Of a DNA stretch of 64,000 nucleotides, positions 1-64,000 are shown one piece after another. The position numbers were made by a program, and so were the translations under genes. The notes below the pieces were generated by a model, which saw only the letters and a list, made by a program, of their open reading frames with translations, had not been told where the DNA came from and ran no database searches. This DNA comes from a virus, in the IMG/VR virus record IMGVR_UViG_2718218017_000006, positions 18,956 to 82,955 of that record; one strand, given 5' to 3'. Every line of letters starts with the position of its first letter. The first letter of the stretch is position 1.

Positions 1-53
1 AAAATGTTAATAAAATTATAGCATATTCTGCTAATAAGGGGAATTTATATACA

Positions 54-464
54 TTAATCTGCCTCAATAGCATCCGTTAATTCATAACCTTCAAATGTAA
101 AAGGACTTTCTTCCATTACTAAATCCCCAACCTTTAAATCAATAAGGTTAACTTCATCAGCCATACAGTTCAACAATCTTATACTCTCATATCCATATGC
201 TTCTGGATCTTCAAGTCCTACGATAAGTTCAAATCGCTTAAAATCTCTTTTTATCATATCTGATGTTACATGATATCCAGTAAAACTGCCGGTACCTTTT
301 TTAGTACCTCTCTTATACCTAGTCCACTCATCTCCAACTACATTTATTTCTTTTTTATCAAGTGCGACTTTTGCAGTACACTCACTTACATTTGTTTGTT
401 CAACTCCATCCATAAGTATTTTTCCATACCTACTATGAATAGTTCTACTTGAATCTAAAGGCAT
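54..464 (-). CDS. Phage tail tube protein (XkdM-like)
   Basis: Follows sheath; SRTIHSRYGK...KKGTGSFTGYHVTS...ESPFTFEGYE pattern. Confidence 0.85.
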   Translation of the reverse strand: MPLDSSRTIHSRYGKILMDGVEQTNVSECTAKVALDKKEINVVGDEWTRYKRGTKKGTGSFTGYHVTSDMIKRDFKRFELIVGLEDPEAYGYESIRLLNCMADEVNLIDLKVGDLVMEESPFTFEGYELTDAIEAD

Positions 465-474
465 ATTATCCCTC

Positions 475-1902
475 CTATCTTATATATCCTGTACCATAAA
501 TTCTTTTCATCACATTTATATATTTAGCATCCCATATCCAGAAGAACTCATCATTTTTAGCATTCGCTTGAAGTTCTTCATCTATTTCCACAGTAAAATC
601 GCTATCTATTAGACCAGAATCATTCAAAGTTTCAAAGTACTGTTTCAAAGCTGCCAATACAGCAACCTGTCCTGTTCTATCATTGCCTATCTTTCCTATA
701 TATTTCTGATTACCTGTAGAACTAGTATCTTCATCTACTGCATCTATAAATTTAATAGCTCTTAAATATCCTAAAGTTTCATTTTGATCTGTCCCATAAG
801 ACTTTAAGGTATTTACATCATCTTCTACTATAACTTCACCATTATCGTATCTTACAATCATAGTACCTGCTTGTAATGAACTTTTAATTTCCTCATCAGT
901 TAGGTTTTTAGTCACATTACTAAACACAGTTTTAGCATTACACAAGCTTTCTTTAAGACTTTGACCTTCTCCAAGGGCTGCTATATAACATGCTGTTTCT
1001 GCTGGAGTATATGTTATTCCATCCAATATTCCTCCAACTGCACCAATATAACAGAATCCCTCATAATTGAAACTTTGTGATTTAGCATTAGCCTCATTTA
1101 TTGTCTCATCTAACCCACCACCGGCATATGCTCTTATTTTCTTTCCATTCTTCCTGTTTTTCTCAACCCATGATTTAACACTTGTTTGAAGAGCTGAATC
1201 TATTATTCCATCCAATACGAATCCATTAAATTTTACACCTTCAAATGCTGCCATGGCATCAATATATTTATCATTTGTTATTGCTGCTGCACCATCATTA
1301 CCACCTGTTAATGGCTGATTTACTATACTTGTCAAAGTACTGTTGCCATCTGCAACTTTTTCAGCATTAATCCACAGATTCTCTTCATTGTTATTTATTG
1401 ATTCAACCATTTCCTGTATTGCTCCAGAAAGTGCTGTAAAAGAATATATTTGAGTCGTCTCATCATAGAGAATTATATCTTTTTTAGATGAATCTACAAT
1501 ATTATCTCTCACAGTAACGTTGAATTTTCTTGTAGTAGGATATTTCGTATTGATTTTTAATACATCTCCAGAAGGTTCAGCTGTATCTTTTAATGTTATT
1601 GTAGATACCTTTTCATTTCCATCCGCAAGTCTATACAAAAGGAGTTCTTTGGGCTGACCTAATAATACCAGTCTTCCAAGTCTGTATGCAGTATAGCTGG
1701 TATCATCTCCGAAACTTGCAATTAATTCTTTTTCAGATGTTATTGATATCACTACTCCAACCGGTCCCCAATTGGCTTTTACAGGCATTGCAATAATGCC
1801 TCTTTTGCCTTGCTGTATACGTGATAAAGCTATAGCTTTAAACCTATTATAAAATCCTGGCCTTATCGGTTTATCTGTCTCACTCCAATATCCAGATGCC
1901 AT
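475..1902 (-). CDS. Phage tail sheath protein
   Basis: RPGFYNRF, PVKANWGP, LTGGNDG motifs typical of XkdK-type sheaths. Confidence 0.9.
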   Translation of the reverse strand: MASGYWSETDKPIRPGFYNRFKAIALSRIQQGKRGIIAMPVKANWGPVGVVISITSEKELIASFGDDTSYTAYRLGRLVLLGQPKELLLYRLADGNEKVSTITLKDTAEPSGDVLKINTKYPTTRKFNVTVRDNIVDSSKKDIILYDETTQIYSFTALSGAIQEMVESINNNEENLWINAEKVADGNSTLTSIVNQPLTGGNDGAAAITNDKYIDAMAAFEGVKFNGFVLDGIIDSALQTSVKSWVEKNRKNGKKIRAYAGGGLDETINEANAKSQSFNYEGFCYIGAVGGILDGITYTPAETACYIAALGEGQSLKESLCNAKTVFSNVTKNLTDEEIKSSLQAGTMIVRYDNGEVIVEDDVNTLKSYGTDQNETLGYLRAIKFIDAVDEDTSSTGNQKYIGKIGNDRTGQVAVLAALKQYFETLNDSGLIDSDFTVEIDEELQANAKNDEFFWIWDAKYINVMKRIYGTGYIR

Positions 1903-1903
1903 A

Positions 1904-2215
1904 CTATTCTACCTTCTTTCCTAAGAATTTTTTAATTCTTTCTTTAAGCTCTGTTTTAGTCATCTTTGTTTTTTCACAATTAAATAAAGCACCTGAGACT
2001 ACTTCTCTCCTGTAACCAAGTGCCTTACAATTATTTATAAAATCTTGTATGTCATATACTTCTTCTTTTGATGCCAATTTTTCCTCTTGATTAGCCTTAA
2101 CTCCTTCTACTTCTGTAACTGTAGTTTCCTCCAAATCTTCTTTGATAGATAAATTCTCTGGTACTATCTTTTCATCAGTCGGAATGTATTCTTTCTGTAT
2201 TGTATTATCTTCCAA
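1904..2215 (-). CDS. Hypothetical phage tail-region protein
   Basis: ORF track; position between tail completion gene and sheath. Confidence 0.55.
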   Translation of the reverse strand: MEDNTIQKEYIPTDEKIVPENLSIKEDLEETTVTEVEGVKANQEEKLASKEEVYDIQDFINNCKALGYRREVVSGALFNCEKTKMTKTELKERIKKFLGKKVE

Positions 2216-2241
2216 ATCTATCCCTCCTTAATTAACCTACT

Positions 2242-3057
2242 TTATTTTCTCCTTCCATAAATTTTATTTATAGTTGGTGTATTTTTCTCTATCATCTTCC
2301 TCCTAAAAAAAGTAACAGTTAGCTGGCCTACACCTAACATATCTGCTTCCCTATCTTCACTAATACTTTCTACAGTAAGGTATCGCCTATCTAACAAATC
2401 CAAAGGTATTTTAAAATCATCAATAAGATTATGTTCTATATCATCTAATAATTTATTAACTTGATTTTTATTATTACTGACAATGTGGCATACAAAAGTT
2501 TTAGTCTCTTTTACAAGAGCGTAATTTTCTCTTTCCTTCTTTTGATTCTTTACCCTCCATAAAATAGAAGGCACTTGAAAATTCTTTTTCCAATTATTAA
2601 GATATACTGTATAGTCTGTAATAGTTTTTGTATAGTCATATAATGCATGAAGCCATGTATCGGTATTGACTTCATACTCCTCATGTAGAGCTATGACATT
2701 AAACCGAAGTCCTCTTGCTATGGCCTGCCATTCCACATCTGCAACATCCTGTCCTATGGTGCCATTAAAAATACAGGTAAAAGTTTCATTTGTTTTTGTA
2801 TCTTCTATTACCTGCATATTAAGAGCCTTGATTACTTTGTCCCCCAGTGAATCCAGATTTTTAAAGGTAGTTCTTTTCTCATATATCCATATTTCTATAG
2901 TTCTTTTGAATCCAACTACCTCTCCACTGTCGGTATCATTACCCTGGAGAACTACTGCATAAGGTTTCGGGGTATCTCTTGTTGGAACAGTGGGATCACA
3001 ACATTTTTTAAGTTCTGGAATACTGTCAGTAAGTTTTTTTCTTATTCCGTCACGCAT
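2242..3057 (-). CDS. Putative tail terminator/completion protein
   Basis: Synteny upstream of sheath; PYAVVLQG...IEIWIY pattern. Confidence 0.6.
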   Translation of the reverse strand: MRDGIRKKLTDSIPELKKCCDPTVPTRDTPKPYAVVLQGNDTDSGEVVGFKRTIEIWIYEKRTTFKNLDSLGDKVIKALNMQVIEDTKTNETFTCIFNGTIGQDVADVEWQAIARGLRFNVIALHEEYEVNTDTWLHALYDYTKTITDYTVYLNNWKKNFQVPSILWRVKNQKKERENYALVKETKTFVCHIVSNNKNQVNKLLDDIEHNLIDDFKIPLDLLDRRYLTVESISEDREADMLGVGQLTVTFFRRKMIEKNTPTINKIYGRRK

Positions 3058-3284
3058 TGCTTTTCTACCTTTGCCTTAGCTTTTATTTTTAAATGTTCTG
3101 CGTAAAATTCTACTTTCACCATAGGTATATTTCGTGCATCCATTGAAAAACTAACGCTTTTTACTTTTTTTGAATGATCAATTCCATCTATAATTATTTT
3201 CCCTAATAATTTATCAATGCCATATTCTATTTCTATATCAGCTAATTTTAATTCTTCTTCATTTTTAATCTGATTTTCACTCAT
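3042..3284 (-). CDS. Hypothetical phage protein
   Basis: ORF track, tightly packed in operon. Confidence 0.5.
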   Translation of the reverse strand: MSENQIKNEEELKLADIEIEYGIDKLLGKIIIDGIDHSKKVKSVSFSMDARNIPMVKVEFYAEHLKIKAKAKVEKQCVTE

Positions 3285-3304
3285 ATTATCAATCCCCCCA
3301 TAAT

Positions 3305-3730
3305 TTATTCACTCCAATATTCAATTATTTTATTTGCTATATTGTTCTTATTATTTTTAAGGGTATTCTCTAAAACAGGCATAGGTTTTATTCCCTTTAC
3401 GAGCTTAGCAAAATGTCTATTTCCATCTTCATCAACCCAACTTAATATTTTCTTATTTACAGGTACTATAGGCTTTCCTGCAGGTCCGTATATTCCGGTA
3501 CCTTCTTCCAGCCATCCCCCATATTCTTCACTTGGAATCAAAGACAAAGTATATTTTCTTCCTGAGCCTTCCACACCGCCTTTTATACCCCTTCTTGCAT
3601 CTCCACTTCTGTCTTTCCAGTAGGCGTTCGACTTGGCCTCATTAACCAGCATGGGTTTTATTTTGTTATCAAGCAGCCCATACATTCCATTTAGTTTATT
3701 TTCTATGAAATCATTAACTTTGAATCCCAT
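3305..3730 (-). CDS. HK97 gp10-like neck protein
   Basis: WKDRSGDARRGI, YGGWLEEGTG, VKGIKPMPVL motifs. Confidence 0.75.
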   Translation of the reverse strand: MGFKVNDFIENKLNGMYGLLDNKIKPMLVNEAKSNAYWKDRSGDARRGIKGGVEGSGRKYTLSLIPSEEYGGWLEEGTGIYGPAGKPIVPVNKKILSWVDEDGNRHFAKLVKGIKPMPVLENTLKNNKNNIANKIIEYWSE

Positions 3731-3743
3731 ATAACCACACCTT

Positions 3744-4136
3744 TTAATCTATACGTTCCAAATCACACTCATAACCGCAGATTGTATCATTAATTATTAT
3801 AGGATATGCGGCCTTTACCTCGAATTTATCACCATTACTTGTAAATTCAATAGATTGTTTAGGCGTAACATCCAATTCTGCATCCTTGTCAGCAATCATT
3901 TTGTATCTGCTTATATAAGAAGTTCCCTGGATTCCTGAATTTATATTGATATTTACTGAATTACTATTTGTCCCAATATAAATTAATACCGTTATGGTTT
4001 TCTCAATTGGTTCATCATCTACAAATGCACCATCAACCTCTTCGTTAATAGTCTTAGTATAAGTTATAACCGTTGGATTTACTGATATGGCCTTATTGAT
4101 TGCATTTATAATTTTATTTGGATTTATTTTTGGCAT
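3744..4136 (-). CDS. Putative head-closure protein
   Basis: Synteny after connector. Confidence 0.55.
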   Translation of the reverse strand: MPKINPNKIINAINKAISVNPTVITYTKTINEEVDGAFVDDEPIEKTITVLIYIGTNSNSVNININSGIQGTSYISRYKMIADKDAELDVTPKQSIEFTSNGDKFEVKAAYPIIINDTICGYECDLERID

Positions 4137-4456
4137 TATGCACCATCACTTCTTCTCATGGAAGTTTTATAGCCTCTTACTATAGTTGGATTTAATGCAG
4201 CCTGTTCTGATAAATAATCAGCTTGATATATGGAAGCTAGATTATTCCAATAGTCAGGATCGGCATTTTCTATTGTTACAGGTCCCACCACTATTTTACT
4301 TTCCATATTTGCTTTCATTAAACAACCTCTCCAGCTGGCCTTAAGGACATTATTGTCATTTACTTCAAGTAAATTCTCCAATTCTTCATCTGAAAACACT
4401 GGGTACTGACTTTCATTAAGATTTACTTTCAATATTTCTAAAGGAGTAAAAGCCAT
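4136..4456 (-). CDS. Putative head-tail connector protein
   Basis: FSDEELENLLE motif, position after capsid genes. Confidence 0.6.
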   Translation of the reverse strand: MAFTPLEILKVNLNESQYPVFSDEELENLLEVNDNNVLKASWRGCLMKANMESKIVVGPVTIENADPDYWNNLASIYQADYLSEQAALNPTIVRGYKTSMRRSDGA

Positions 4457-4458
4457 AA

Positions 4459-4683
4459 TTATTCACCTGCCTCTGTACCTGCCTTTTCCCCTTCTCTATT
4501 AGGTGGAGTAGATGGAGGAGTTTCAGCTTCTTTTGGGATTTCTATATCTGCATATTTACTTAATTCTTCTATGTCTTTTTCATTGACTTTGAATTTTTCT
4601 CCTGTCTTCATGAATGCTCCATTATACTTAATATGTTGTCTTGCTATTGCATTATATTTTTTTGTTGCCATGAATTTATTCAC
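4459..4683 (-). CDS. Small head-region protein
   Basis: HIKYNG...GEKFKV, directly after major capsid gene. Confidence 0.5.
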   Translation of the reverse strand: MNKFMATKKYNAIARQHIKYNGAFMKTGEKFKVNEKDIEELSKYADIEIPKEAETPPSTPPNREGEKAGTEAGE

Positions 4684-4727
4684 TCCTTATAACATTAAAT
4701 TAAAAAGTAGCCATAATTAAATGACTA

Positions 4728-5786
4728 CTAAGCAACAGTACCAAAGAACACTTCATCTGCTCTATCAAACGAAACAATAGGCATTACCGACACCTTGGTA
4801 TCTACAGTTACTGGATCCCACTTAGTATTTGTAGTAACTGCTATACCTGGTTCTATTATTGTTGTATCTAATTTCCCACTGCCATGTGTTAAATCAAACT
4901 CTTCAGGAGTTGTACCATAAACAGTATCTCCTAAAGTTGCTCCACTCATTAATGTTATCTTATAATTCTCATAATAGGGTACTGGGTCTGCTCCTTCATA
5001 TGGATAATATGTTGTGTCTTCTAAGAATACGATAATCAAATTCATTCTTTCTTTAGCATATTGTAAATAATCTGATTGAGATAATATTCTTAATGTATTT
5101 AAATTGCTATTTCTTATGTCATTTGTAATTGCAGTATTAATTAAAAATGTTTCATCAAAAGTTTTCTCTGTCATAAGCATAATATTAGGCTTTGGACAAT
5201 TATCATCTGTTATTATCTTTTGAAAATTTTTAACGTCTCCAACTATATCGGCAGCAGGATTCGTCCATTTATCATCAGCAGTAAGTATAGTTCTGTGATT
5301 TTCTGGCACACCATACTCGACAGCAACATTTCCGTCCTTAGGATCACTAGAATAAATAATTTTCCCTGTTTGAATTACTTGTGCTCTCATTTTTTTAGCA
5401 ATTATTCCTGCACCTTTTATAAGATTTGCTTGCCCATCAAAAACTTGATCTAAAACTGCATTAACAATATTTTCATTATTACAATTCATAGCATTTATAA
5501 CTTCTCTTCTTGTGGTTTCATCTATTCCAACAGCTTCTTTAAAAAATGGAATCTCGGTTGTTGAAACTTCTACCTTAGCATTTAACGATCTCATTTTAGC
5601 AGCTACATCAAAAGTCGATTGCCTTAATGCTACAGCTTTCTTTTTAGCACCTTTTGCGTGTTCTAATTTAGTTCCTAATACTTTCTTATTAGGAAACAAT
5701 GTCTGGTCTATAGTATCTTCCACTGGTAATTCCTTAATATATAAGGCGATATTTTTTGAATTTATATAATCCTGTAATTTAGGCAT
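4728..5786 (-). CDS. Major capsid protein (capsid E family)
   Basis: 352 aa; LFPNKK, PFFKEA, KWTNPAADIVGD motifs; follows decoration and scaffold genes. Confidence 0.85.
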   Translation of the reverse strand: MPKLQDYINSKNIALYIKELPVEDTIDQTLFPNKKVLGTKLEHAKGAKKKAVALRQSTFDVAAKMRSLNAKVEVSTTEIPFFKEAVGIDETTRREVINAMNCNNENIVNAVLDQVFDGQANLIKGAGIIAKKMRAQVIQTGKIIYSSDPKDGNVAVEYGVPENHRTILTADDKWTNPAADIVGDVKNFQKIITDDNCPKPNIMLMTEKTFDETFLINTAITNDIRNSNLNTLRILSQSDYLQYAKERMNLIIVFLEDTTYYPYEGADPVPYYENYKITLMSGATLGDTVYGTTPEEFDLTHGSGKLDTTIIEPGIAVTTNTKWDPVTVDTKVSVMPIVSFDRADEVFFGTVA

Positions 5787-5798
5787 TTTTGTTCCTCC

Positions 5799-6185
5799 TT
5801 ATGCTCCAAATATTATTTGTTTTAACGCAGCCTTTTCTACTTCTGCATTATCTTCATTAAATTTAATTTCTGATTCGTATAAAACTCCATGTACCAGAAC
5901 CGGTACAATTTCTGTAGCATTGTTAGGATTAGAATCAACTGACATAGAATCTTTAAAACTTACATCTTGATAAACGACACCATAGGCATCTGTTGTACTT
6001 TCGGTTGTTGTTACTGGTTTTCCTTCCTTTGTTAATAATGTTCCAGCTTCTAACACTTCATCCGAATTTATTGCTGTTAATACATCTGCTTTCTTTACAT
6101 TAATAGGTAACGATATAAAATGGTCACCAGCTATTAATCTTAATTTCTTTTGGCCGCCTATAACCTCATACGAACTTTGATGCAT
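5799..6185 (-). CDS. Putative head decoration protein
   Basis: LEAGTLL...AYGVVYQDV...VLVHG, between scaffold and capsid genes. Confidence 0.65.
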   Translation of the reverse strand: MHQSSYEVIGGQKKLRLIAGDHFISLPINVKKADVLTAINSDEVLEAGTLLTKEGKPVTTTESTTDAYGVVYQDVSFKDSMSVDSNPNNATEIVPVLVHGVLYESEIKFNEDNAEVEKAALKQIIFGA

Positions 6186-6208
6186 TTTGCATTCCTCCTT
6201 AATAAAAA

Positions 6209-6823
6209 TTATTTTTTAGCAAAATCCAAAATATTTTTGGACTTACTAGCTTCTGCACGTTGCTTTCCAAGTTTTGTTGCTATATTTTCATCACTTGGTG
6301 TAGGATTTGATTCTGAACCGCCTGAGTTAAAAGTACCTGTACCCTTAATCTCTTTTTCAAATAGATAGTCATCAGATTTCTTGATTGCATCAACCTGCTC
6401 CTTAAGACCGATAAAATTACCATTGTCATCAAGGGTCAACTTGTCTAAGTCTAGTAATCCTTTCAGAACTTTAGAGTTTTTAGCCCCTATAGTAGCTAAT
6501 TTAGATTCAAGAGCAATATTGAACATCTGTTTCTTATACTCTGCCTCCTGTTTGCCCAAATCTTCTTTGTTTTTGCTCTGCAGGTCAGTGAGTTTAGTTT
6601 TTAAATCCTCATTGTCTTTAGCAAGTGGCTCCAAGTCTTTAATCTGCTTGTCTCTATCAGATACACCTTTTTTATAATCATCACGCTCCTTTTTCGTTTG
6701 ATTATATGTCTCCTTAGAAATATAATCAGAACTATCTACCAAATCTATGTCTTTGTATTTTTTCTGGAGATCTTCTGGTATTTGTGTAAATGAATCTCCT
6801 AATATTTCACTTAATTTTGGCAT
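6209..6823 (-). CDS. Phage scaffolding protein
   Basis: Coiled coil, GAKNSKVLKGLLD, QVDAIKKSDDYLF. Confidence 0.85.
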   Translation of the reverse strand: MPKLSEILGDSFTQIPEDLQKKYKDIDLVDSSDYISKETYNQTKKERDDYKKGVSDRDKQIKDLEPLAKDNEDLKTKLTDLQSKNKEDLGKQEAEYKKQMFNIALESKLATIGAKNSKVLKGLLDLDKLTLDDNGNFIGLKEQVDAIKKSDDYLFEKEIKGTGTFNSGGSESNPTPSDENIATKLGKQRAEASKSKNILDFAKK

Positions 6824-7246
6824 TATTTTAATCCTCCTTGTTTTTTTCTATTAAATGATTGACTTTATCCCTTCAAACTTTCCACTTAATTTTTAGTAAA
6901 TCAAACTTCAATTTATACAGTTCAGCAACTATATTTAAGTACTCAATTGGCTTTATGTCCTCATTATCCAGATATTCATCTGCCAATGATTTTAAATATG
7001 CTAGGTTTTCTATTTGTTGATCTAACTCGGTATTTATTTTATCTGCATCCACTAATTTTGTACCTCCTCATTTTGCAAGATGAAAAAAGGCCCTATTCTT
7101 TTAAGCCCTGAATTATTACTATATCTTAATTTTTTTCTTCCAAACGCAGATACACTTTCCTAAAATATTTATTTGTATCCAAGACTCTGCATACTTTAAT
7201 CCATTTTCTTCGTATTTTGTGATGTAGTGATGCATCCTTTTTCCTC

Positions 7247-7663: not shown

Positions 7664-7728
7664 CACAATCCCTCCCTTAATTTTGAGCATAATAAAAGCA
7701 CTCACTATTTTCACTTAGTAAGTGCTTC

Positions 7729-7878
7729 TTACTCGTTTACTTTATTAGACTCTAATTCTTTCATAAAAGTTTTATATTCATTTTTTACCCACTGTGGAGA
7801 ATCTTCTTTTATTTTTAGGCCCTCATCATCATAATAAACATATTCAGTACTCATAAACTTAGGTTCTGGTAGTTCCAT
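7729..7878 (-). CDS. 49-aa protein, candidate immunity partner of MuF toxin domain (absent from ORF track)
   Basis: Manual translation MELPEPKFMSTEYVYYDDEGLKIKEDSPQWVKNEYKTFMKELESNKVNE with GGGGTG RBS. Confidence 0.65.
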   Translation of the reverse strand: MELPEPKFMSTEYVYYDDEGLKIKEDSPQWVKNEYKTFMKELESNKVNE

Positions 7879-7883
7879 ATCTA

Positions 7884-9602: not shown

Positions 9603-9604
9603 AA

Positions 9605-54265: not shown

Positions 54266-54278
54266 TATACCTCAACTC

Positions 54279-57200
54279 CTATATATTCATTTCAGCTATA
54301 GTAAGTTTTTTAACCAAAGCTGTAGCTATCTTGTCTATATCTGCTTCTTCCCTAACAACTATTTTATCTGCCAGTTTCTCTATTATAATTTTTATACCGG
54401 ATTTTTTATCCCCATTTACTAAAGCTTCTGCCTGTTCCAATAAATATTTTGAGCGTGAGTTGTCTTTCTTTAAAGGTATTGCCATCTCTGGATAATCACC
54501 CTCACCAAAAATTGAAGGTTGAGTTGCTATACCACCCTGGGCATAACCTACATAGTTACCACCATAAAGATTAGGAATGTTATTTACGTTTCCATAACGT
54601 GATTTAATATAATCTATCGCACTCGCAGCATTGGCAATCGGATTCATTATATTATTTAACCCCGAAACCATATGTTCTCTAAATGTGCTTCCTAACATTT
54701 GTAAGAGTCCAGTAGCATGTTCTCCTCCAACACTTATTGAATTCCATGCTGTAGGATTTCCACCAGATTCTCTTTTCACTAGTTGTAATAATCCTGGAAG
54801 CCAACTCATAGGTGTACCTGTTATTCCAAGAGCAGCAGTTAACCATTCTGTAACATTCCCGCCCATGGCACTTCCAGCCATAGAAGTGATATCTCCAATC
54901 CAGTTTTTAATGAACTTTTGAATGTCTATAGAGGATATACCCTTTATAACTCCTTGAGGAATGAATTGTGACAACTTATACATAACTAAACTAGGGCTAT
55001 GAATCCCAAAACCCGTTTTGAATTCTTCAATGACCTTGTCTGTAAGTGCTTTAACTATACTTGTTAAATTACCCACATTCGACTGTATACCTGCCCCAAG
55101 TTCCTGAACAATTCCCTGGCCATAAGTCAAACTTTGGTTTTTTAAATCTGTATAAATATTTTTAACCCCTGTACTCATATTAGTAGTAGGGGTTGTTACA
55201 GATTTTATGTTATTTTGGATGCCTGTTCCATAAGTTTTCATCATATCTACTGCATAAGTATCAAAATCACTTAAAGGTCCTTTGTCTGGTACACTGAAAT
55301 GGATTAATTCTTTTATTTTAGAAGCCATTAAAGTCGTTGCGTCTGTTACAGATTTAGTATTCTGTCTTATTCCTTTTGCCATACTTTCTGGAATATCCTC
55401 TCCCCATTTAGTTATATTTGAGGTATTCATATTAGGTATTGAAGCTTGAACTTGCATATTTTTCATCATATTATTAGATTCTCTATTACTATGAATTTTA
55501 GTACCTGCGGGAAGCTCCATTAATTCAGGACCATTTTCATTTACCCACGTAGGTCCCCCTCTCCAATAAGTAGTCCCAAGAGCATTATTACCCGGAATAG
55601 GTCCTACTTTCCAGTCAGTCATAGTTACAGTAGTTGTTTTTCCGTTTTCATCCTTTGTGGTAACTTTATTACTTTTATCTTTATCAAGCCATTTTGTAAG
55701 CCAATCGTAAGCCTTTTTAATAGCATCAGCTATACCATTAAATAAATCTATAATCCAGCCTAAAATTGGAGCTATAAAATCATATACACCTTTTATTATA
55801 GGAGAAAGTTCTGCAATTACATCTAAAGCTTTTCCAACAACTTTTGCTATTATATCAAAAGCAACACTAAAAACTTTTTGAATTCCTGGCATAGCTTCTT
55901 TAATTTTTCCCCATAAATCCTGAACTATTGGGATAATATTCACTTTTATTACATTCCAGAAATGTTCAAGATGAGGTTTTATGCTATTAAAGGACTTTAT
56001 AAAAGAATTTGCTATAGGAGGTAAATATTTATTTACTACCCCAGCTATAGCTGTTACTGCAGGAATTACATACTGTTGAGCAATACCACCTAAGAATTTA
56101 AAAGCAGGTAAAACCACTGTTTGAACTATTTTAGATAAAGATTTAAATGCCGGTTCTCCCACAGATTTTATTATTTTAGATATAGTATTAAAAGTAGGAG
56201 TTAAGACGGTTCCTATCTTCCCACCTATCTTTATAATATTTTCGCCAAACTTAGTAAAACCATCTGCATTTTTATCTAATAAATTGGCAAGAGGTGTAAG
56301 GATTTTATTGATAACAGGTAAAAAAGCCTTGCCAAAATTTGCTCCTATTGTTTCTAAATTTCCTGTTACGGTACTCCACTTACCAGCAGTGGAATTACTT
56401 AATTCACTTGCTCCTCCTGCAAATACTTTTCCTATATTTCCCTCGGAACTTGTTTGCTGTTTAAAATAACTTTCAACTCCCCCAGCATTATTTATATCAT
56501 CCTGACTTATTTTGAAACCAAACTCTTTCATTCTTTCAGTTTCGCCAGTTTTTAAATCAGCCAAAGCTTCCATAGCATCCATTACACTTTTTCCAGGATT
56601 AAGTGCTGCCATATTCTCACTCAATTTCACTAAATCCATGCCTGCTTTAGTATCTCCTGAAGTTATATTCACAGCTCTACGCCCTGCTGCTATAACTTCA
56701 CTAGTTCCAAAAGGCGTAATGTTAGCTTCTGTCCTAAGTTGGGATATATAAGAATCCGTCATTTTCTGAACATCTGCTTGACTAGAACTTTGGTTATTGT
56801 AGCCTATAAAATGCTTCATAGCTATTTGTTCTTGTTCTAAGTCTGAAGCTGCACCTATAGTAGCTTTTCCTGCCGCATTTGTTGCCATTGTGGCTGCTAA
56901 AGTTTTTAGACTAAATAGATTATTCTTAATCTTAGATATCACCGAAGAAGTTTCATCTTTAGCCTTAATGGCTATTGTGACAGGTAATTTTGCTAAACTG
57001 AGCAATTCACTTTTGGCCTTAGATACAACTCCTACTGTTTTATTTACTGCATTAATAGATAATAAAGTAGATTTTATAGTAGCCATATCACCTTTAACTT
57101 TAGAAATAACTTCTTTAGTCTTATTGGTGGCGTTGATTGGAATATTTAATGGATGTGTTACTATTTCTTTAATGTTATTTTTTAATTCACCTATTTTACT

Positions 57201-57563
57201 GTTAGCTAAAGCAGTATCCATATCTATTCTTTTTCCTGATACCATATCAATAACTTCAGCTGTAGAATTAACTGAATTTTTTACTTCATTAATCTTATCA
57301 ATGGCATTATCAGTATTTATACTTACCTTCTTTTTAGACATAAGGTCTATAACATTGTTAGCAGATGTAACGCTCTCCTTAACATTCTTAATTTCATTAA
57401 TGGCACTGGTTGTATCTACATCTATATTTTTCCCTGTCATCATATCAATTACATTATTGGCAACTTTCGCACTTTCCGTAAGCTTATTAACAGCTTCTAT
57501 AGGTGAAACTATTTGAGAACTCATAGTATCTTCTAATACAATTCTAGCTCTTATCTCTGCCAA
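54279..57563 (-). CDS. Tape measure protein with lytic transglycosylase domain
   Basis: ANITPFGTSEV tape domain; KRESGGNP...GLLQ SLT motif. Confidence 0.9.
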   Translation of the reverse strand: MAEIRARIVLEDTMSSQIVSPIEAVNKLTESAKVANNVIDMMTGKNIDVDTTSAINEIKNVKESVTSANNVIDLMSKKKVSINTDNAIDKINEVKNSVNSTAEVIDMVSGKRIDMDTALANSKIGELKNNIKEIVTHPLNIPINATNKTKEVISKVKGDMATIKSTLLSINAVNKTVGVVSKAKSELLSLAKLPVTIAIKAKDETSSVISKIKNNLFSLKTLAATMATNAAGKATIGAASDLEQEQIAMKHFIGYNNQSSSQADVQKMTDSYISQLRTEANITPFGTSEVIAAGRRAVNITSGDTKAGMDLVKLSENMAALNPGKSVMDAMEALADLKTGETERMKEFGFKISQDDINNAGGVESYFKQQTSSEGNIGKVFAGGASELSNSTAGKWSTVTGNLETIGANFGKAFLPVINKILTPLANLLDKNADGFTKFGENIIKIGGKIGTVLTPTFNTISKIIKSVGEPAFKSLSKIVQTVVLPAFKFLGGIAQQYVIPAVTAIAGVVNKYLPPIANSFIKSFNSIKPHLEHFWNVIKVNIIPIVQDLWGKIKEAMPGIQKVFSVAFDIIAKVVGKALDVIAELSPIIKGVYDFIAPILGWIIDLFNGIADAIKKAYDWLTKWLDKDKSNKVTTKDENGKTTTVTMTDWKVGPIPGNNALGTTYWRGGPTWVNENGPELMELPAGTKIHSNRESNNMMKNMQVQASIPNMNTSNITKWGEDIPESMAKGIRQNTKSVTDATTLMASKIKELIHFSVPDKGPLSDFDTYAVDMMKTYGTGIQNNIKSVTTPTTNMSTGVKNIYTDLKNQSLTYGQGIVQELGAGIQSNVGNLTSIVKALTDKVIEEFKTGFGIHSPSLVMYKLSQFIPQGVIKGISSIDIQKFIKNWIGDITSMAGSAMGGNVTEWLTAALGITGTPMSWLPGLLQLVKRESGGNPTAWNSISVGGEHATGLLQMLGSTFREHMVSGLNNIMNPIANAASAIDYIKSRYGNVNNIPNLYGGNYVGYAQGGIATQPSIFGEGDYPEMAIPLKKDNSRSKYLLEQAEALVNGDKKSGIKIIIEKLADKIVVREEADIDKIATALVKKLTIAEMNI

Positions 57564-57707
57564 ATCCTCACCCCATTTCTAGATATAATAAAAGTGCCTA
57601 ACAATAAAAGCAGCCGTATCTTCCAAATAAAAAAGAACCACATGAGTGATTCTCTCTTAAATATGCCACCTTAACTTGAATAAAGTTAGAGATCTTTAGT
57701 ACCAATA

Positions 57708-57917
57708 TTAAATCTTCCACTTATGTCCACAATTAATACAAACGGCAAGAGTTTCGGTTTTAACCTTGCCCTTTCTCTTACCTATAATCAACCAAAGGCC
57801 TAAAGTACATATTATTAAGCAAAGCCTTCCTATTGCCCATAAACAACCCGTGCCCTTCACCCTTGAATCGCCTTGCACTACTTGAATATTATCAGAACCA
57901 CATTTAGAGCATATCAT
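57708..57917 (-). CDS. Zn-ribbon single-TM moron protein
   Basis: CSKC...TM...CINC; own promoter (57954..57983) and terminator (57627..57653). Confidence 0.7.
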   Translation of the reverse strand: MICSKCGSDNIQVVQGDSRVKGTGCLWAIGRLCLIICTLGLWLIIGKRKGKVKTETLAVCINCGHKWKI

Positions 57918-58012
57918 GACAATTTCCCCCTTAATTCATAATTTGTCAATAATATTGTAACAAAATGTATATGTTCTTGTCCAATTTTATGACAAAATTC
58001 CTTATAGAGGGA

Positions 58013-58569
58013 TTATATGATAACTGCTGGGAAAACAGGAATTTTATTATTTAACATTTGCCTTCTTTCCTCACTCTTTTCTTCTATTTCGTAATCATAG
58101 AAAGCTCTTAATACAGTCTTATCGCCCTCAGAAGCATTCCAAAACTCAGACGGTAAAGTGATGTGTTTAGTTTTCCATAACTCATACATAAGAGTTACTT
58201 CTCCACCTGAGTTGATGAGTTTTTTATTTCTTTTATTGCATCAGTTCCGAAACCACTCAAGTTAGTTATAACTTTGACTAAAGAAGTAATTTCTCCTGGT
58301 AAAAATATTGTATTTACTGCTTCTGTTGCTGTTACCACGCCATAATATTCTATTACCTGTTGATTAGTAAAATCGGGATCTTTAACCCCTTTTATAACCA
58401 TATCCTCGTTAGCTGTCTTGGTGTTCTCCAATTCTTTAAATTCATCTGCAGTCAACGCCTGACAAGTAACAGTAAAAGGTTCACCTAAAATATCACTCAA
58501 TCTTTTTATTTCAACTTCTTGCTCAGGTCTTACTAACTTACTCTTATCTACCTTTAATAGTAAATTCAT
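58013..58569 (-). CDS. Tail assembly chaperone (XkdN-like, 58195..58569) with predicted -1 frameshift extension to 58013
   Basis: A AAA AAC slippery heptamer at 58225->58219; open -1 frame KKLINSGGEVTLMYELWK...VII. Confidence 0.75.
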
Positions 58570-58665
58570 TTTATTACTTATGTTTTATTCCTCCTAATAA
58601 TTAATTTTGTTTTTTATATTCTGAAGCAATAAAAAACAACCATAAATCTAACTGTATGGTTGTTT

Positions 58666-59127
58666 TTATGCTGAAGTTATTATGCTTGGGTCGATAGTAT
58701 CCAGTGGTTCAAAATCTTCAAAAGTAAAAGGGATTGACTCAGACCCCAACTTCCCAGATCCCCAATCAGCAAGTGTTAATTCATCAAATTTTACTCCTGA
58801 CATCTTAACTCTTTCAGTACCACCATTGCCCGGGTCACTTACCTTACTGATCATAGTAAACACCGTTTCAATTCCATTTTTTAGATTAGTAGCCATAAGC
58901 AACATCATTCTAGAACTAACTTTATTTAAAGTTATGGTACCACTACCATCCCAACCAACGGTTTTATACTTTTTTGAATTTGTGCCACACATAGGTACTT
59001 CTACTTTGTTTACTTTACACTTGGCCTGAAGAGCTGTAGCTTCTGCAACTTGTGAATCATCCAAGAACACACTGCCATAGTTACCATATATGGTTTTCTC
59101 TTCATTGTAATTTCCTGCATTTGTCAT
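58666..59127 (-). CDS. xkdM: Tail tube protein (XkdM-like)
   Basis: IYGNYGSVFLD, GSGTITLNKV, DELTLADW, SIPFTFEDF. Confidence 0.9.
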   Translation of the reverse strand: MTNAGNYNEEKTIYGNYGSVFLDDSQVAEATALQAKCKVNKVEVPMCGTNSKKYKTVGWDGSGTITLNKVSSRMMLLMATNLKNGIETVFTMISKVSDPGNGGTERVKMSGVKFDELTLADWGSGKLGSESIPFTFEDFEPLDTIDPSIITSA

Positions 59128-59139
59128 ACTTTACACCTC

Positions 59140-60228
59140 CTACGCCGCAATATTTAAATCAACATCTTCCATGCTGTCTAATATAGTTGTAGCAGCACCT
59201 ATAAACACCTTATCATCTGTATTAGCTTCCTTGATTTCCTGTGTTGTCATATCATCTACACCCCTACCATCAGTGGTCGTATATCCTTGGGCTTTCAAGT
59301 AAGCTTTCTGTGCTTCCACATCAATATAAACGCTACTGGAACCTTTGTCCAAAAGACCCGATAGCTCCAACTGTTCAAAATAGCCACCTATAGCACTCAT
59401 GAGTAAAATCTTATGGTCATAATCATTAGGTACTTTACCTATATAGCTATCTGATATAGTTTTCTTTACATCTCCATGCATAAGGTCCATAATATCTACT
59501 ATTTTAATTTTCTTGAACTTCTTCCCTTTATCCTTAGTAGTAGTTACCAGACTATTTACAGCTCTTACAACCTTAACTTTTTCGCCATCATTCATTAGAA
59601 TGAATTTTCCCGCATCAACAGCAGTATCCATTTCAGTTTTAGTTAAATGGTCACAGTCATCCAACTCACTTAAAGGTGCATAAGTAGCACTAATAGTAAG
59701 TGGTGTTCCTGCTATTAACCCTGCTGCTCTGGAACAGTACTCTTTTGCTGTATAAGTTTTGTCCCCTTCTTTGTTGCTGTTATTAGCATAATTAATTACT
59801 CCCTCATGGTCAGATGGACAATTCGGAAGTATCGCCTTAACTTTTTTATCTATATTATCTCTTAAGCCTTTAATCCATGTAGCAAAAGGTGTAACATCTG
59901 CATCTGCTATTTCAGGAAAAGCAAAATAGTCCCATCTAATAGTTTCTAGATAGTGCTGTGCTTCTGTATAATCTGTAGTATCTTCTGCTATTACATAAGC
60001 TATAACCTGTTTAGGTGGATTTACATAACCCATAAAAGCTAGGGTTATTTGATTTTTATTGGCATCCGTGAGTGTATCGGGAATATCTGATACAATACTC
60101 ATTACTATTGGATTGGTAGATGGGACTGTATCTTTTAAAAGTAAAGCTACTATGCCCCGATCACCACGTTCAATAGTACTTGTTGCCAACTCTTTAAATA
60201 CTATATTAATGCTTGGTGCTCCCATCAA
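59140..60228 (-). CDS. xkdK: Tail sheath protein (XkdK-like)
   Basis: MGAPSINIVFKE, DHEGVIN, RAVNSL, KKIKIVDIMD. Confidence 0.9.
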   Translation of the reverse strand: MMGAPSINIVFKELATSTIERGDRGIVALLLKDTVPSTNPIVMSIVSDIPDTLTDANKNQITLAFMGYVNPPKQVIAYVIAEDTTDYTEAQHYLETIRWDYFAFPEIADADVTPFATWIKGLRDNIDKKVKAILPNCPSDHEGVINYANNSNKEGDKTYTAKEYCSRAAGLIAGTPLTISATYAPLSELDDCDHLTKTEMDTAVDAGKFILMNDGEKVKVVRAVNSLVTTTKDKGKKFKKIKIVDIMDLMHGDVKKTISDSYIGKVPNDYDHKILLMSAIGGYFEQLELSGLLDKGSSSVYIDVEAQKAYLKAQGYTTTDGRGVDDMTTQEIKEANTDDKVFIGAATTILDSMEDVDLNIAA

Positions 60229-60232
60229 TTTT

Positions 60233-60673
60233 TCACTCCTTTATATTAAGGTTAATTTCTCCCATAAGCTGGGTGTTTTCATTATCTTTATTAATCACAT
60301 CTCTAATTGAAACCAGGTAATCCAAATTTATTTGAAAGTGAAGTACAAAATCCACTATTTCGTATTCTGTTTTTTGAATATTAATAAACCTGTCTTTAAC
60401 TTGTATACCTATTATAAAGCTGTTTTCAAGTTTATCCTGCATATCGTATAATTCATCATTACATTCTTCTCTAGGGAAGAAATGAATATCCACAACCAAA
60501 GTAGGGTTTTTAGTAAAGAAGCTTGACCTAGTTGTATTTATAGGAATTAATTGCACAAAAAAAGCAGGTGCCTCAAACCCCTGTCTTACCTGTTCATCAT
60601 ATACAATATTCTGTTGAAACTCCTTGCTAAGTTTTAAAGCTACTGCATCTTTTACATCCTTTATACTAATCAT
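60233..60673 (-). CDS. Putative tail terminator protein
   Basis: EQVRQGFEAPAFF, VLHF; synteny. Confidence 0.7.
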   Translation of the reverse strand: MISIKDVKDAVALKLSKEFQQNIVYDEQVRQGFEAPAFFVQLIPINTTRSSFFTKNPTLVVDIHFFPREECNDELYDMQDKLENSFIIGIQVKDRFINIQKTEYEIVDFVLHFQINLDYLVSIRDVINKDNENTQLMGEINLNIKE

Positions 60674-61122
60674 AGGCCGTGCTCCCTGATTACATTATCA
60701 AGCCAGTTTGACAAATACCCCGGAAGTTCTTTATTTAATTCCTCTATACTTATTTTAAGCATGTGTTTACCTGGGACAAAATCAATGGTACCACGCTTTT
60801 TATAAGTATCTGGATGATCAGTTTTACCAAGTCTTGTCCTATGTCCATATTCAACATGGCTTGCATAATCAAGGATATTGAACACTTCTATATAGTATCC
60901 GTTGCCCTCTTTAACTAAGTTTCCTATATGCCATTTTTTTCTTAAGTCTCCGCCAGTATGCCCATCCTTATAAACTCCAACTGGAGTTCTCTTTTTAACT
61001 TTTGCTAAAAGTCTATTTGCAAGCTTGTATATTTCCTTTTCAAGTTCTTCAGGAAACTTAATCTCTGCAAGTTCCATCAAAGCATTTTTGAATTCATCCA
61101 ATCCTTCTATATGAAACCCCAT
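60670..61122 (-). CDS. HK97 gp10-like protein
   Basis: KKRTPV, GGDLRKKW, YASHVEYGHR. Confidence 0.85.
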   Translation of the reverse strand: MGFHIEGLDEFKNALMELAEIKFPEELEKEIYKLANRLLAKVKKRTPVGVYKDGHTGGDLRKKWHIGNLVKEGNGYYIEVFNILDYASHVEYGHRTRLGKTDHPDTYKKRGTIDFVPGKHMLKISIEELNKELPGYLSNWLDNVIREHGL

Positions 61123-61472
61123 TATGATTTCTCCTTTCTTAAAAGAGGTACCTCTAAATGACTTGCATAATAAAAAGGCTCTCCTGCTTCATATTTTCTC
61201 TTAGTACCATTTTCGAATGTAACCTCTACATCATCACCTGAAGCTATAGGAGTATCAGGCGCACAGAATAGTATTGAATTGTACTGAATATTATTTGTAG
61301 TATCAGTTTGATTTACATTTGCTACATCCTTTTTAGATATAGCACAACTGATATTCTCCACTTTTATTCCTGGCTTAAATGCTGTAGCCCCATTAGGTTT
61401 TGTATATGGGACCTGTCCTGATATAGTTACTTTATCAAAGTAAGTAAGTGCCAATATTTCTGCTTCCGTCAT
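61122..61472 (-). CDS. Head-tail adaptor
   Basis: LFCAPD...GDDVEV; synteny. Confidence 0.65.
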   Translation of the reverse strand: MTEAEILALTYFDKVTISGQVPYTKPNGATAFKPGIKVENISCAISKKDVANVNQTDTTNNIQYNSILFCAPDTPIASGDDVEVTFENGTKRKYEAGEPFYYASHLEVPLLRKEKS

Positions 61473-61795
61473 ATGAATCTAACCTTTCTAAAAGAATTTA
61501 ATTCTTTTTTATCCTGATCTGTTAAGTTTACCAATTCAGTTTGAGTTTTTTGTCCTGTATATTCAAATCGAGTATCTCCTCTTTGAATCGACTTAATATT
61601 GTTAGTTGTATCCGGGGCTTTTAAAATTAATACAACCTTGTTTTCTATAAAAGGTATGATTTCTTCTGGCAGACTAGATAAATTACAATATTTTAAAACC
61701 TTTTTAGTTATAGCATCAGTATAATAATTTATTAATGCATCTTTAGATGTATCTTCTGAAGCAATGCCTAAAAGCATTTTTATATTTTCTAGCAT
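61469..61795 (-). CDS. Head-tail connector protein
   Basis: MLENIKMLLGI, KYCN, IKSIQRGDT. Confidence 0.8.
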   Translation of the reverse strand: MLENIKMLLGIASEDTSKDALINYYTDAITKKVLKYCNLSSLPEEIIPFIENKVVLILKAPDTTNNIKSIQRGDTRFEYTGQKTQTELVNLTDQDKKELNSFRKVRFI

Positions 61796-61806
61796 AAAAT
61801 CACATC

Positions 61807-62052
61807 CTATTCAATTTCATGTTCTTTAATCTTTTCCAGAATACCACTAATGCTAGTTGATTTACCTACATCTATCGCTTTTTCTTTTGCATAATCCCTT
61901 AACTCTTCAATAGTCATTTCTTCTAAAGGTTTAACATTTCCTGACTCTTCTTTTTTACTTACTAATAACTCAAAACCACTGCTAAGCAAGTCGTCACGTG
62001 CAGTTTCCGATAAAACTACACGCTCTATATTAGATTTTTTTAATCTGTACAT
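61807..62052 (-). CDS. Small head-region protein (Rho-N-like helical tail)
   Basis: EMTIEELRDYAKEKAI. Confidence 0.6.
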   Translation of the reverse strand: MYRLKKSNIERVVLSETARDDLLSSGFELLVSKKEESGNVKPLEEMTIEELRDYAKEKAIDVGKSTSISGILEKIKEHEIE

Positions 62053-62062
62053 ATCAATCCTC

Positions 62063-62995
62063 CTATGACTTCGCTTGCTTTATATTTGCATAAATTGAAT
62101 TAATTTTATTGTCCAAAACCCAAAGGTCGTGGTATCTTCTATAATCCATAGACCACGCATTAGCAGCCTGATTTGTATTTGGATCGAATATTCTCATTAT
62201 GTCCTGTTTAGTGATTGCTAATGGAACATCTCTAGGTGCTATAATAAAGTTTACATCCTTTGCTGTAGTCCCTTTGGTATATCCTCCAATCTTTTGACCT
62301 TCTGTTACTCCATCATATAAAGTAATTGACGAATACAATCTATTTGAGGGTGTAGAAATAATAGGACAAATATCTACAGCTGGAACTTTAGTGTCAATAC
62401 CTCCCTGTGAAAAGGTTACAGATGCAATCTTATTAGACATTGCTATTTCCAATTCATTAACTACATCATAGTTTGCGTGGATAATTAGTTGCCCATTATA
62501 CCCATTTTCTCTTATTACCTTTATACCAAGCTTAAGTTCTGCTAAAATAGTTGCTGCTGCTGGAGTATATCCATATTTAACATTAGTATCATCAGCCACA
62601 GACATGGCTTTAGTTGCCAGTGAAGATAATCTATAAGCATCAATTTCAGGTATCACCTTGGTTCTTTGAAATTCTCCCATTATATTACCTGCAGTTAATA
62701 CAAATCCTGTTTCATCAACATCCATGGCATCAATAGAGAATTTTCTCCCTCTATCTTGAGTCATTTCATAAGTTTTATATTCAAATTTAACGTCTCCACC
62801 TGCATAACCACCGGCTGATCCTCTTTCATAATCTCCTAATCCATCTACAGTTAATTGTGGTATTTTAACTTCTTTACCGCCATTATATTTTACTTTACCG
62901 GCGTTTGAATCCATCCATCCTGTTAACATCTCATGCACAGCCGCCTTATCTAATTCACTTTGAAATATGGTGGCATATTGTATTACATTAGCCAT
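62063..62995 (-). CDS. Major capsid protein B
   Basis: GGKEVKIP, MTQDRGRKFSIDAMD, VIPEIDAYR, YRRYHDLWV. Confidence 0.9.
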   Translation of the reverse strand: MANVIQYATIFQSELDKAAVHEMLTGWMDSNAGKVKYNGGKEVKIPQLTVDGLGDYERGSAGGYAGGDVKFEYKTYEMTQDRGRKFSIDAMDVDETGFVLTAGNIMGEFQRTKVIPEIDAYRLSSLATKAMSVADDTNVKYGYTPAAATILAELKLGIKVIRENGYNGQLIIHANYDVVNELEIAMSNKIASVTFSQGGIDTKVPAVDICPIISTPSNRLYSSITLYDGVTEGQKIGGYTKGTTAKDVNFIIAPRDVPLAITKQDIMRIFDPNTNQAANAWSMDYRRYHDLWVLDNKINSIYANIKQAKS

Positions 62996-63021
62996 TCTTT
63001 TTACCTCCTAAAATTTTATTT

Positions 63022-63639
63022 CTAAATCGTTCCTGCTATAGCACTTGCTATTTGTGCTGCTACTTCCTGACCTCCCTCACTTCCACCTTTGGGCTGATAC
63101 ACATATGTGTTCTGATTTTGTTGATTATCTGGATTGGTATTTTCATCTGCAAACACTCCTGGATTATTTTCTTTAAACTGTTTTATATAATCATCTGCTC
63201 CTAAAAACTTGCCATCAGATAACTTAAGTTCTTGGCCAACAAACTCTTTTAAGAAAGCATTTTTTGTAAAGTCATTAGCGAATTTAAGACTATTTATATA
63301 GTCTTTAGCTGAAAATTCATACTCTTGGGTTTTCATTTTTTTCTCAAGCTCTGTTTTTTGATTTTCTGCCTCTGTTTGGAAACTTTCATACTTAGTTTTC
63401 CATTCTTCTGCTGAATTTTTAATACCTTCTATATCCATTTCTTTAAACTTTTCAATCTGAGAGTTTGCTTCATCTAAAGTCTGTTTATTAGCTTCAAGCT
63501 CAATTTCCAAGCCTTTAATTTTTTCTGTCACTTTTTCAGTTTCTTTCTTTTGCTTTTCAACATCCTTGCCATTTTCACCCATAACTTTATCTATGACTGA
63601 ATCCTCTAATCCTAACTCTTTTAAAAATTCTCTTTTCAT
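63022..63639 (-). CDS. Phage scaffolding protein B
   Basis: MKREFLKELGLED...MGENGKD. Confidence 0.85.
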   Translation of the reverse strand: MKREFLKELGLEDSVIDKVMGENGKDVEKQKKETEKVTEKIKGLEIELEANKQTLDEANSQIEKFKEMDIEGIKNSAEEWKTKYESFQTEAENQKTELEKKMKTQEYEFSAKDYINSLKFANDFTKNAFLKEFVGQELKLSDGKFLGADDYIKQFKENNPGVFADENTNPDNQQNQNTYVYQPKGGSEGGQEVAAQIASAIAGTI

Positions 63640-63746
63640 ATCCTATTCCTCCAATACATTACGTTTTTTACGAATTTAACATTTTCAATACTGATACTTA
63701 TTTCTTTTACGCCTAATAACTTTTAAAAAGGCAAAAATAAAAAGCC

Positions 63747-64000
63747 TTACTCCGAAGACTTATAATTTTTAGATTCCAATTTTATAATAAAATCATTTCT
63801 CTTATTCAATTCTTCTATTAATTTATTTGTTGGTACTAATGATAAATCCATATCATTGAAAGATTCAGGATTTCTCAAAGATTCACCAATCAATTCATAA
63901 ACCGGAACATCAAGAGCTTTTGCTATTTCGTTTAAAGTGTCTATGTTAGGTTCTCTTTTATTATTTTCATACCTGGTTATAGTAACTGGTATAACTCCAA
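63747..64000 (-). CDS. XRE HTH protein, 5' end outside window
   Basis: Manual translation ...TITRYENNKREPNIDTLNEIAKALDV... Confidence 0.7.
   Translation of the reverse strand, partial: GVIPVTITRYENNKREPNIDTLNEIAKALDVPVYELIGESLRNPESFNDMDLSLVPTNKLIEELNKRNDFIIKLESKNYKSSE

Follow-up and report, generated by a model that had tools for sequence, protein, structure and literature searches.

Gene content of the window and its flanks

The 64,000-nucleotide stretch analysed here (the window; positions 18,956 to 82,955 of IMG/VR virus record IMGVR_UViG_2718218017_000006) corresponds to G000:C1:3725481-3789480, where G000 is the genome that holds the window, C1 is its single 4.45-Mb chromosome contig and C2 is a second contig of 58.6 kb. 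The window most likely represents the central part of a 119.3-kb co-integrate formed by two temperate Clostridium phages, both mosaic and contractile-tailed. Forty kilobases were fetched on either side, and positions below 1 or above 64000 are window-relative coordinates in these flanks. The GC content is ~32%, the closest named relatives as judged via the recombinases are the Clostridium species Ca. C. eludens, C. luticellarii and C. magnum, and almost every gene at 1-30 kb and 43-64 kb lies on the minus strand. Two large serine recombinases are distinguished throughout, namely recA, the enzyme of 667 amino acids (aa) encoded in the window, and recB, a 551-aa enzyme encoded outside it. X denotes the prophage with recB and structural module A, and Y denotes the phage with recA and structural module B; lysogeny module A is the set of Y, found with recA, and lysogeny module B is the set of X, found with recB. 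The principal features, including the phage attachment site (attP) and its neighbouring open reading frames (ORFs), are as follows.

1-13204, minus strand: structural module A of prophage X (PHROGs and Pfam matches)
13202-26505, minus strand: shared early region, copy 1 (self-blastn; PHROGs annotation)
26506-37900, strand unassigned: lysogeny control and cargo of Y, that is, lysogeny module A (Pfam)
38013-40016, plus strand: recA, 667-aa large serine recombinase in its attP-state form (Resolvase, Recombinase, Zn_ribbon_recom and HTH_19/HTH_3 domains)
39713-39766, strand unassigned: intact attP of Y, with perfect 19-bp inverted arms at 39713-39731 and 39748-39766, a 16-bp centre and the crossover at 39738-39740
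40227-40436, strand unassigned: conserved left-end block, comprising the 3' part of a small ORF and a terminator-like hairpin
40672-46969, minus strand: left-end cargo and lysis genes of Y (Pfam), including a 354-aa unknown protein and small ORFs
46980-64000, minus strand: structural module B of phage Y (PHROGs and Pfam matches, ORF map)
69566-82798, outside the window: shared early region, copy 2
91733-93388 (L004 7733-9388), outside the window: recB, 551-aa large serine recombinase (Resolvase, Recombinase and zinc-ribbon domains)

Related phage DNA occurs elsewhere in the same genome. C2 (58,581 bp) is a third mosaic relative with a serine recombinase homologue, a YhfC gene, early genes, a TerS-A-like region and lysis genes, and a fourth related prophage is situated close to the beginning of C1 (C1:~52-123 kb). 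G000 is polylysogenic for one recombining phage group.

Attachment sites of recB and recA

The outer borders of the element are those of recB. The N-terminal fragment of an NMT1-like lipoprotein gene directly follows recB at 93.35-93.65 kb, its C-terminal counterpart occupies -26663 to -25881, and the two rejoin without loss (...TTGQGAD / KTMQQ...). The core ATCTGC is common to both outer junctions (-25874 to -25869 and 93422-93427), and both phage ends together restore a dyad-symmetric recB attP with imperfect 21-bp arms around ATCTGC, as read from the sequence; furthermore, the left and right prophage junctions (attL and attR) of recB rebuild one ORF. Because the NMT1-like fragments and the ATCTGC core stand at both ends, the 119.3-kb block around the window (-25874 to 93427) sits in one recB-type attL/attR pair, within one split NMT1-like lipoprotein gene. 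The initial annotation had proposed that the flanks be inspected for a second terminase, an integrase and outer attL/attR sites, and all of these were found: module B with an intact terminase large subunit (TerL), the second recombinase recB, and the outer attL and attR.

A recB-like gene adjoining the NMT1 N-terminal fragment is also present in C. luticellarii and Ca. C. eludens. An empty bacterial site (attB) in the NMT1-like gene was looked for in two other species of the genus, G011 (L183) and G006 (L184), and both were found to be occupied at the same position by similar phage ends. The NMT1-like gene is thus a recurrent integration hot spot for recB-type phages. In Ca. C. eludens L086 (NZ_JBJHZX010000003.1), both the recB-like gene and the NMT1 N-terminal fragment have the reverse orientation with respect to the host flank, and the C-terminal fragment lies only ~4 kb off in the opposite orientation, which suggests a rearranged or remnant element. 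On the host side, a T-box leader (L001 13064-13277, minus strand, 122 bits) lies just downstream of the NMT1 C-terminal fragment in the window's own flank, upstream of an 898-aa host gene.

The attP of Y falls inside the recA reading frame, at codon 576. When the sequence at 39500-40700 was searched across the genus, it was contiguous in G000 only; in three related genomes, the sister genome G004 as well as G017 and G003, it is broken at 39738-39740, with the recA part at one end of a single prophage and the right part at the other, 50-70 kb away. At these ends, the left arm is fused to the counterpart of G000 DNA starting at C1:2305048, and the right arm to that ending at 2305050. Flanking DNA of those recA-type prophages matches two adjoining stretches of G000, C1:2304520-2305050 and 2305048-2306604, and the attB at C1:2305048-2305050 is continuous and empty in this genome, inside an intact 425-aa GIDA/FAD-oxidoreductase gene 1.42 Mb from the NMT1-like gene. 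The four sequences form the attP x attB = attL + attR set for recA, with the reciprocal hybrids present in G004, G017 and G003. The initial annotation had described an attP-like junction through which two phages are joined. An attP is indeed present and is in fact complete, but it is the unrecombined attP of one phage and not a hybrid of the arms of two, as both arms at 39713-39766 are recA-type and bound single recA-type prophages in G004 and G017 on the right and on the left. The phage of recA has thus not used its own integrase in G000. An uncut attP together with an empty attB implies that no recA-mediated integration took place, which excludes both a tandem at the same att site and a nested insertion by recA. 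Furthermore, recA and recB are 40% identical and their attB sites lie in different genes (GIDA/FAD and NMT1-like, respectively), so that the att specificity which the two phages had been thought to share is contradicted.

Exact-pattern scans for the uncut attP found none in the collections of genome contigs and viral contigs, and one metagenome contig matched; this contig, from a fermentation metagenome, holds the uncut attP within a recA-like ORF, 91.9% identical. In the plasmid collection, no match to recA with attP was obtained, and a literature search for attP inside a serine integrase gene returned nothing relevant.

The position of attP within the gene bears on the recombinase itself. 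The C-terminus of recA carries an XRE helix-turn-helix (HTH) domain at residues about 610-667. The integrated homologues in G004 and G017 are 587 aa long and lack the HTH, and their last 11 residues are host-derived; integration exchanges only the C-terminal 91 aa of recA, and the catalytic and DNA-binding domains stay intact. In attL, the stop codon of the truncated host ORF overlaps an ATG (GTATGAAC), and that ATG opens an 89-aa XRE protein. On this comparison, the C-terminus of recA changes on integration, with a shift from 667 to 587 aa. To the right of attP lies the conserved left-end block, which other prophages of the genus also carry and which recurs at -22365 to -21991 (self-blastn, 92.8% over 97 bp and 84% over 61 bp).

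Shared early region, structural modules and cargo

The two copies of the early region are 97.3% identical over 13.3 kb, with ~9.8 kb nearly identical, at an offset of 56,364 bp (self-blastn). The identical tracts in copy 1 (13202-18071, 4870 bp; 18072-18913, 841 bp; 19212-22996, 3784 bp) are interrupted only by one T5/T6 insertion/deletion (indel) and a 300-bp diverged patch, and the copies also differ along a 3.5-kb stretch at 86-95% identity. The region encodes YmaF, a transcriptional regulator, a DNA methyltransferase, DUF4317, a Holliday-junction resolvase, DnaC- and DnaD-like loaders, a RecT-like protein and an SbcC-like protein. A helicase assignment for the 452-aa early gene was dropped, as PHROGs identifies it as the DNA methyltransferase. 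The T5/T6 homopolymer indel (18071 versus 74436) is the sole difference over 5.7 kb and frameshifts the DNA methyltransferase of copy 2; either a genuine slippage mutation or an error of sequencing could account for it.

Structural module A, of which the tail, fibre and lysis genes extend left of the window to about -22 kb, contains the following genes within the window.

54-464, minus strand: tube, DUF2001
475-1902, minus strand: sheath, 475 aa, Phage_sheath_1
4728-5786, minus strand: capsid, 352 aa, Phage_cap_E
6209-6823, minus strand: scaffold
7884-9602, minus strand: MuF-like protein
9605-10870, minus strand: SPP1-type portal, N-terminus missing
11143-12437, minus strand: TerL pseudogene in five frame pieces
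12437-13204, minus strand: terminase small subunit (TerS)

Compared with the intact 450-aa TerL of G004, TerL of module A has six 1-bp indels, and the TerL/portal boundary (10870-11140) has 26-, 11- and 2-bp deletions relative to G004, whose homologues are intact. TerL and the portal of module A have thus decayed, and X is a decaying prophage. Frameshifts are also present in copy 2 of the early region, with at least four in the SbcC-like gene, one in the RecT-like gene and one in the methyltransferase gene. The decay is local rather than a uniform sequencing error, because long genes elsewhere are intact. By the co-integrate reckoning, X measures ~62.9 kb and comprises its left end, structural module A, the shared region, lysogeny module B, a kinase gene and recB.

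A solitary CRISPR repeat (L001 17765-17794, window -22235 to -22206; Rfam CRISPR-DR3, 49.4 bits) lies in the left-end cargo of X; upstream of it is a partial, degenerate copy, and the flanking DNA is AT-rich and resembles a leader. In G004, this 31-bp repeat occurs as a spaced array (C1:2835138-2835834), and the repeat is not present at the homologous window position 40287-40341. A type I restriction-modification specificity subunit and an N6-methylase follow (L001 18037-19964, window -21963 to about -18930), and a GNAT acetyltransferase and an Fe-alcohol dehydrogenase sit between this restriction-modification cargo and attL.

Structural module B continues beyond the right edge of the window, where the MuF-like protein, the portal, an intact 471-aa TerL and TerS lie at 64.7-69.6 kb. 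It also has head-tail connectors, and its other assigned genes, together with those of the adjoining lysis and cargo region, are listed below.

63022-63639, minus strand: scaffold
62063-62995, minus strand: capsid, 310 aa, phrog_422
59140-60228, minus strand: sheath, 362 aa
58666-59127, minus strand: tube
54279-57563, minus strand: tape measure, 1094 aa
50959-52044, minus strand: baseplate
46980-50405, minus strand: fibre, 1141 aa
43889-44710, minus strand: lysin, Amidase_2 and PG_binding_1 (Pfam)
42583-43284, plus strand: DUF4309 protein (Pfam)

The PHROGs and Pfam matches bear out the presence of two complete head/contractile-tail modules on the same (minus) strand, as the initial annotation had read them. 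Both modules contain the contractile-tailed (myovirus-type) set of sheath, tube, tape measure, baseplate, capsid, portal and terminase, with TerL and the portal of A pseudogenised. The description of the modules as unrelated stands for the head and packaging genes: in all-against-all blastp of A versus B, capsids and terminases gave no match, and the capsids, TerL and TerS belong to different families. It does not stand for the tails, which are distant homologues (tube 29%, sheath 28% and baseplate proteins 33-34% identity); the portals and scaffolds are likewise distant homologues, and parts of the fibre, one downstream gene and the lysin wall-binding domain are 83-97% identical. The C-terminal domain of the Y lysin is 92% identical to that of the GH25 lysin of X. 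When the phage collection was searched for the nearest phage, only short matches of 117-300 bp and no extended nucleotide similarity were found, all of them to C. difficile and C. tetani myophages. The capsid gene of module B is 77.8% identical over 300 bp to capsid genes of the phiCD119 type (phiCD119 / phiCDHM19, C. difficile), and the scaffold gene of module A is ~80% identical over 117 bp to that of phiCT453A / phiCT19406A (C. tetani). Given this search, neither unit is closely related to any deposited phage, and since the matches are only 117-300 bp long, the borders of the units cannot be drawn from known phages.

Lysogeny module A and the cargo of Y, between copy 1 of the early region and recA, contain the following genes (Pfam).

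29377-29892 (minus strand) and 30402-30707: XRE HTH genes
31453-31878: CI-like repressor
31887-32342: ImmA/M78 peptidase
32349-33419: HSDR_N protein, 356 aa
33515-34315: YhfC protease
34396-35358: SNase
35903-37219: GHKL histidine kinase

With its HSDR_N domain, the 356-aa ORF at 32349-33419 is not an integrase. These lysogeny genes are linked with recA-like genes in G004 and one metagenome contig, and module B, lysogeny module A and recA all look intact. The YhfC gene has a 95.8% identical copy on C2, and the kinase region recurs at 87% beside recB in the self-comparison. Because of the kinase paralogue beside recB and the YhfC copy on C2, the host-looking genes at 33.5-37.2 kb are regarded as mobile cargo. 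Host genes separating two independent prophages, which were to speak against a joined element, are accordingly not present between the two units, the host-looking genes there being this cargo. The two GHKL kinases (35903-37219 and 89940-91253) share 80% amino acid identity, and each lies just upstream of a serine recombinase; a kinase upstream of a recA-like gene is also found in Ca. C. eludens (L005).

Origin of the arrangement

Based on the attachment sites, the repeat structure and the gene decay, a possible course of events was proposed for the formation of the 119.3-kb block. A real co-integrate, in which circular Y recombined by homology into the decaying resident prophage X, is considered the probable explanation. 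In this proposal, recB would have integrated X (~62.9 kb, with module A) into the NMT1-like lipoprotein gene, where X would then have decayed. Y would have been a 56,364-bp circle with an intact module B, its own lysogeny module and recA, in the order attP right arm, left-end cargo, lysis B, structural module B, shared region, lysogeny module A, kinase and recA, and its own integrase would not have been used. A single homologous crossover between the Y circle and X could have occurred within the shared early region, which encodes the RecT-like and SbcC-like recombination proteins. As an outcome, Y would be circularly permuted, with attP uncut, between two direct copies of the shared region. 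Since the crossover product is permuted, the window would read as a circular phage map with the lysis and cargo genes beside the integrase; the adjacency itself, which the initial annotation had pointed out, is seen at 38013-40016, where the plus-strand recombinase lies against the cargo and lysis end of module B. X would be the older, defective resident and Y the later arrival, because most of the decay is on the side of X and module B and recA are intact.

One crossover in the shared region reproduces the observed gene order exactly. As expected for a co-integrate, direct repeats of the shared homology flank the incoming genome, and an intact attP is accompanied by an unoccupied attB. In addition, G004 supplies the predicted parents separately. 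At its NMT1 site lies one prophage of 72.6 kb, which shares the left end (95.7%), has A-type tail/head genes (86-93%), B-type lysogeny genes and recB (93.6%), and corresponds to the predicted X alone; its GIDA/FAD site holds a separate 70.5-kb recA-type prophage. The tandem double lysogen of two different phages, one of the arrangements suggested initially, is supported by these comparisons. On the other hand, several points weigh against the co-integrate. Among public sequencing runs, none from this strain and none with more than 0.41 of the words sampled from 36-44 kb was found. The identical tracts of up to 4.87 kb are repeats that could mislead an assembler in the presence of an episomal circle. 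The crossover could instead have used the 97-bp block or the kinase genes (87% identical), although both are weaker candidates than the early region. Finally, copy 1, which lies on the side of Y in the model, has two frameshifted small genes, so that the decay is not confined to X.

These points lead to the alternative of an assembly artefact, in which X alone occupies the NMT1 site and Y is a free circle, either episomal or excised and replicating, that was threaded in via the near-identical 9.8-kb repeat. The intact attP and empty attB are the signature of a free circle, the length of the identical tracts would allow such threading, X alone is what is seen at the NMT1 site of G004, and the related phage-like C2 was assembled as its own contig, so that circular phage DNA may exist in the culture. 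The repeat copies, however, were not collapsed: they retain the 300-bp diverged patch, the indel and the 3.5 kb at 86-95%, and reads of ~6 kb or more would place them. The single 4.45-Mb chromosome contig further suggests that such repeats were generally resolved, and C2 stayed separate instead of being merged. A chimeric assembly, also named in the initial annotation, is judged less likely than the co-integrate. Site-specific tandem lysogeny, either with the same att for both phages or by nested insertion of recA into an attB-like site in the other prophage, would account for the head-to-tail units in the same orientation, for the 97-bp direct repeat at -22085 to -21991 and 40341-40436, and for the weakly similar AGCAATTT motifs near both copies of this repeat. 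Any recA-mediated insertion would nevertheless have split the attP, which is uncut; moreover, many prophages of the genus share the 97-bp block as a common left-end element, there is a single attL/attR pair of the recB type, and the recombinases differ in sequence and target gene as described above. This route is very improbable. The specific version in which recA inserted unit A by nesting, with AGCAATTT near -22135 and 40095 as the core, was rejected, as the relatives place the crossover at 39738-39740 and attP is uncut.

A single composite element evolved to encode two virion types was another initial suggestion, and two full head/tail gene sets in one orientation inside one attL/attR pair are what it would predict. 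The six 1-bp indels in TerL of module A, the boundary deletions and the portal without its N-terminus make two virion types unlikely; the whole early region and two lysogeny modules are duplicated, as expected of two genomes, and 119 kb is far above the size of either unit. The composite element is therefore given hardly any credence. A further possibility accepts the co-integrate and extends it, such that homology-driven piggy-backing would be a regular route to lysogeny: a recA-type phage would park in a related, often defective, prophage with its attP uncut and its integrase as an Int-XRE fusion, exit would proceed by RecT/RecA loop-out or in-situ packaging, and the swap of the C-terminus (667 aa with HTH versus 587 aa plus the 89-aa XRE protein) would signal the state. 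This extension is regarded as doubtful.

The preferred co-integrate has a classical precedent. In lambda int- and b2 genetics, tandem double lysogens arise via general recombination of incoming lambda with the resident prophage. The likeness is close, since there too a circular genome enters by one homologous crossover, two head-to-tail genomes lie in one attL/attR pair and the incoming attP is uncut. Contrary to the lambda case, the partners here are heterologous mosaics with different serine integrases, attB genes and structural modules, the case comes from nature and not from a laboratory cross, and its resident prophage is a defective one. Pending read-level proof, the arrangement is a natural, heterologous case of this known mechanism, lambda-type double lysogeny by general recombination. 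With respect to the recombinases, prophages with large serine recombinases interrupt host genes, as SPbeta does in spsM and Listeria A118 in comK, and in the present system, too, a serine recombinase lies at the end of the prophage, the interrupted host ORF shows a short common core, and attP is dyad-symmetric. Unlike in SPbeta and A118, the attP of Y lies within the recombinase ORF, integration swaps the C-terminus, and the attP is unused in G000. In fuselloviruses of the SSV1 type, attP lies within the int gene and integration partitions the gene, the SSV1 Int being an archaeal tyrosine recombinase. The embedding of attP in the integrase coding sequence is common to SSV1 and Y, whereas the enzyme here is a bacterial serine recombinase of which only the C-terminal 91 aa are exchanged. 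De Paepe et al. (2014; PMC3945230) describe relaxed homologous recombination by which temperate phages acquire DNA from defective prophages, and implicate phage-encoded single-strand-annealing recombinases. As in that work, an infecting temperate phage would here have exchanged with a decaying prophage via shared modules, and the shared region holds a RecT-like gene; unlike the exchanges they describe, the apparent product here is the single-crossover co-integrate itself, kept in the chromosome.

For prophage annotation, the locus indicates that adjacent prophages in the same orientation need not share an att site and that borders drawn from gene order would be wrong here, as module A goes with recB and module B with recA, whereas proximity would suggest the reverse. 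Because attP is uncut, the attP, attB, attL and attR of recA could be read out directly. The change in the C-terminus of recA may represent a state switch. If the arrangement is real, it would be a natural case of a temperate phage lysogenised without its own integrase, by recombining with a decaying relative, and it would preserve the single-crossover intermediate in the type of exchange from which phage mosaicism is believed to arise.

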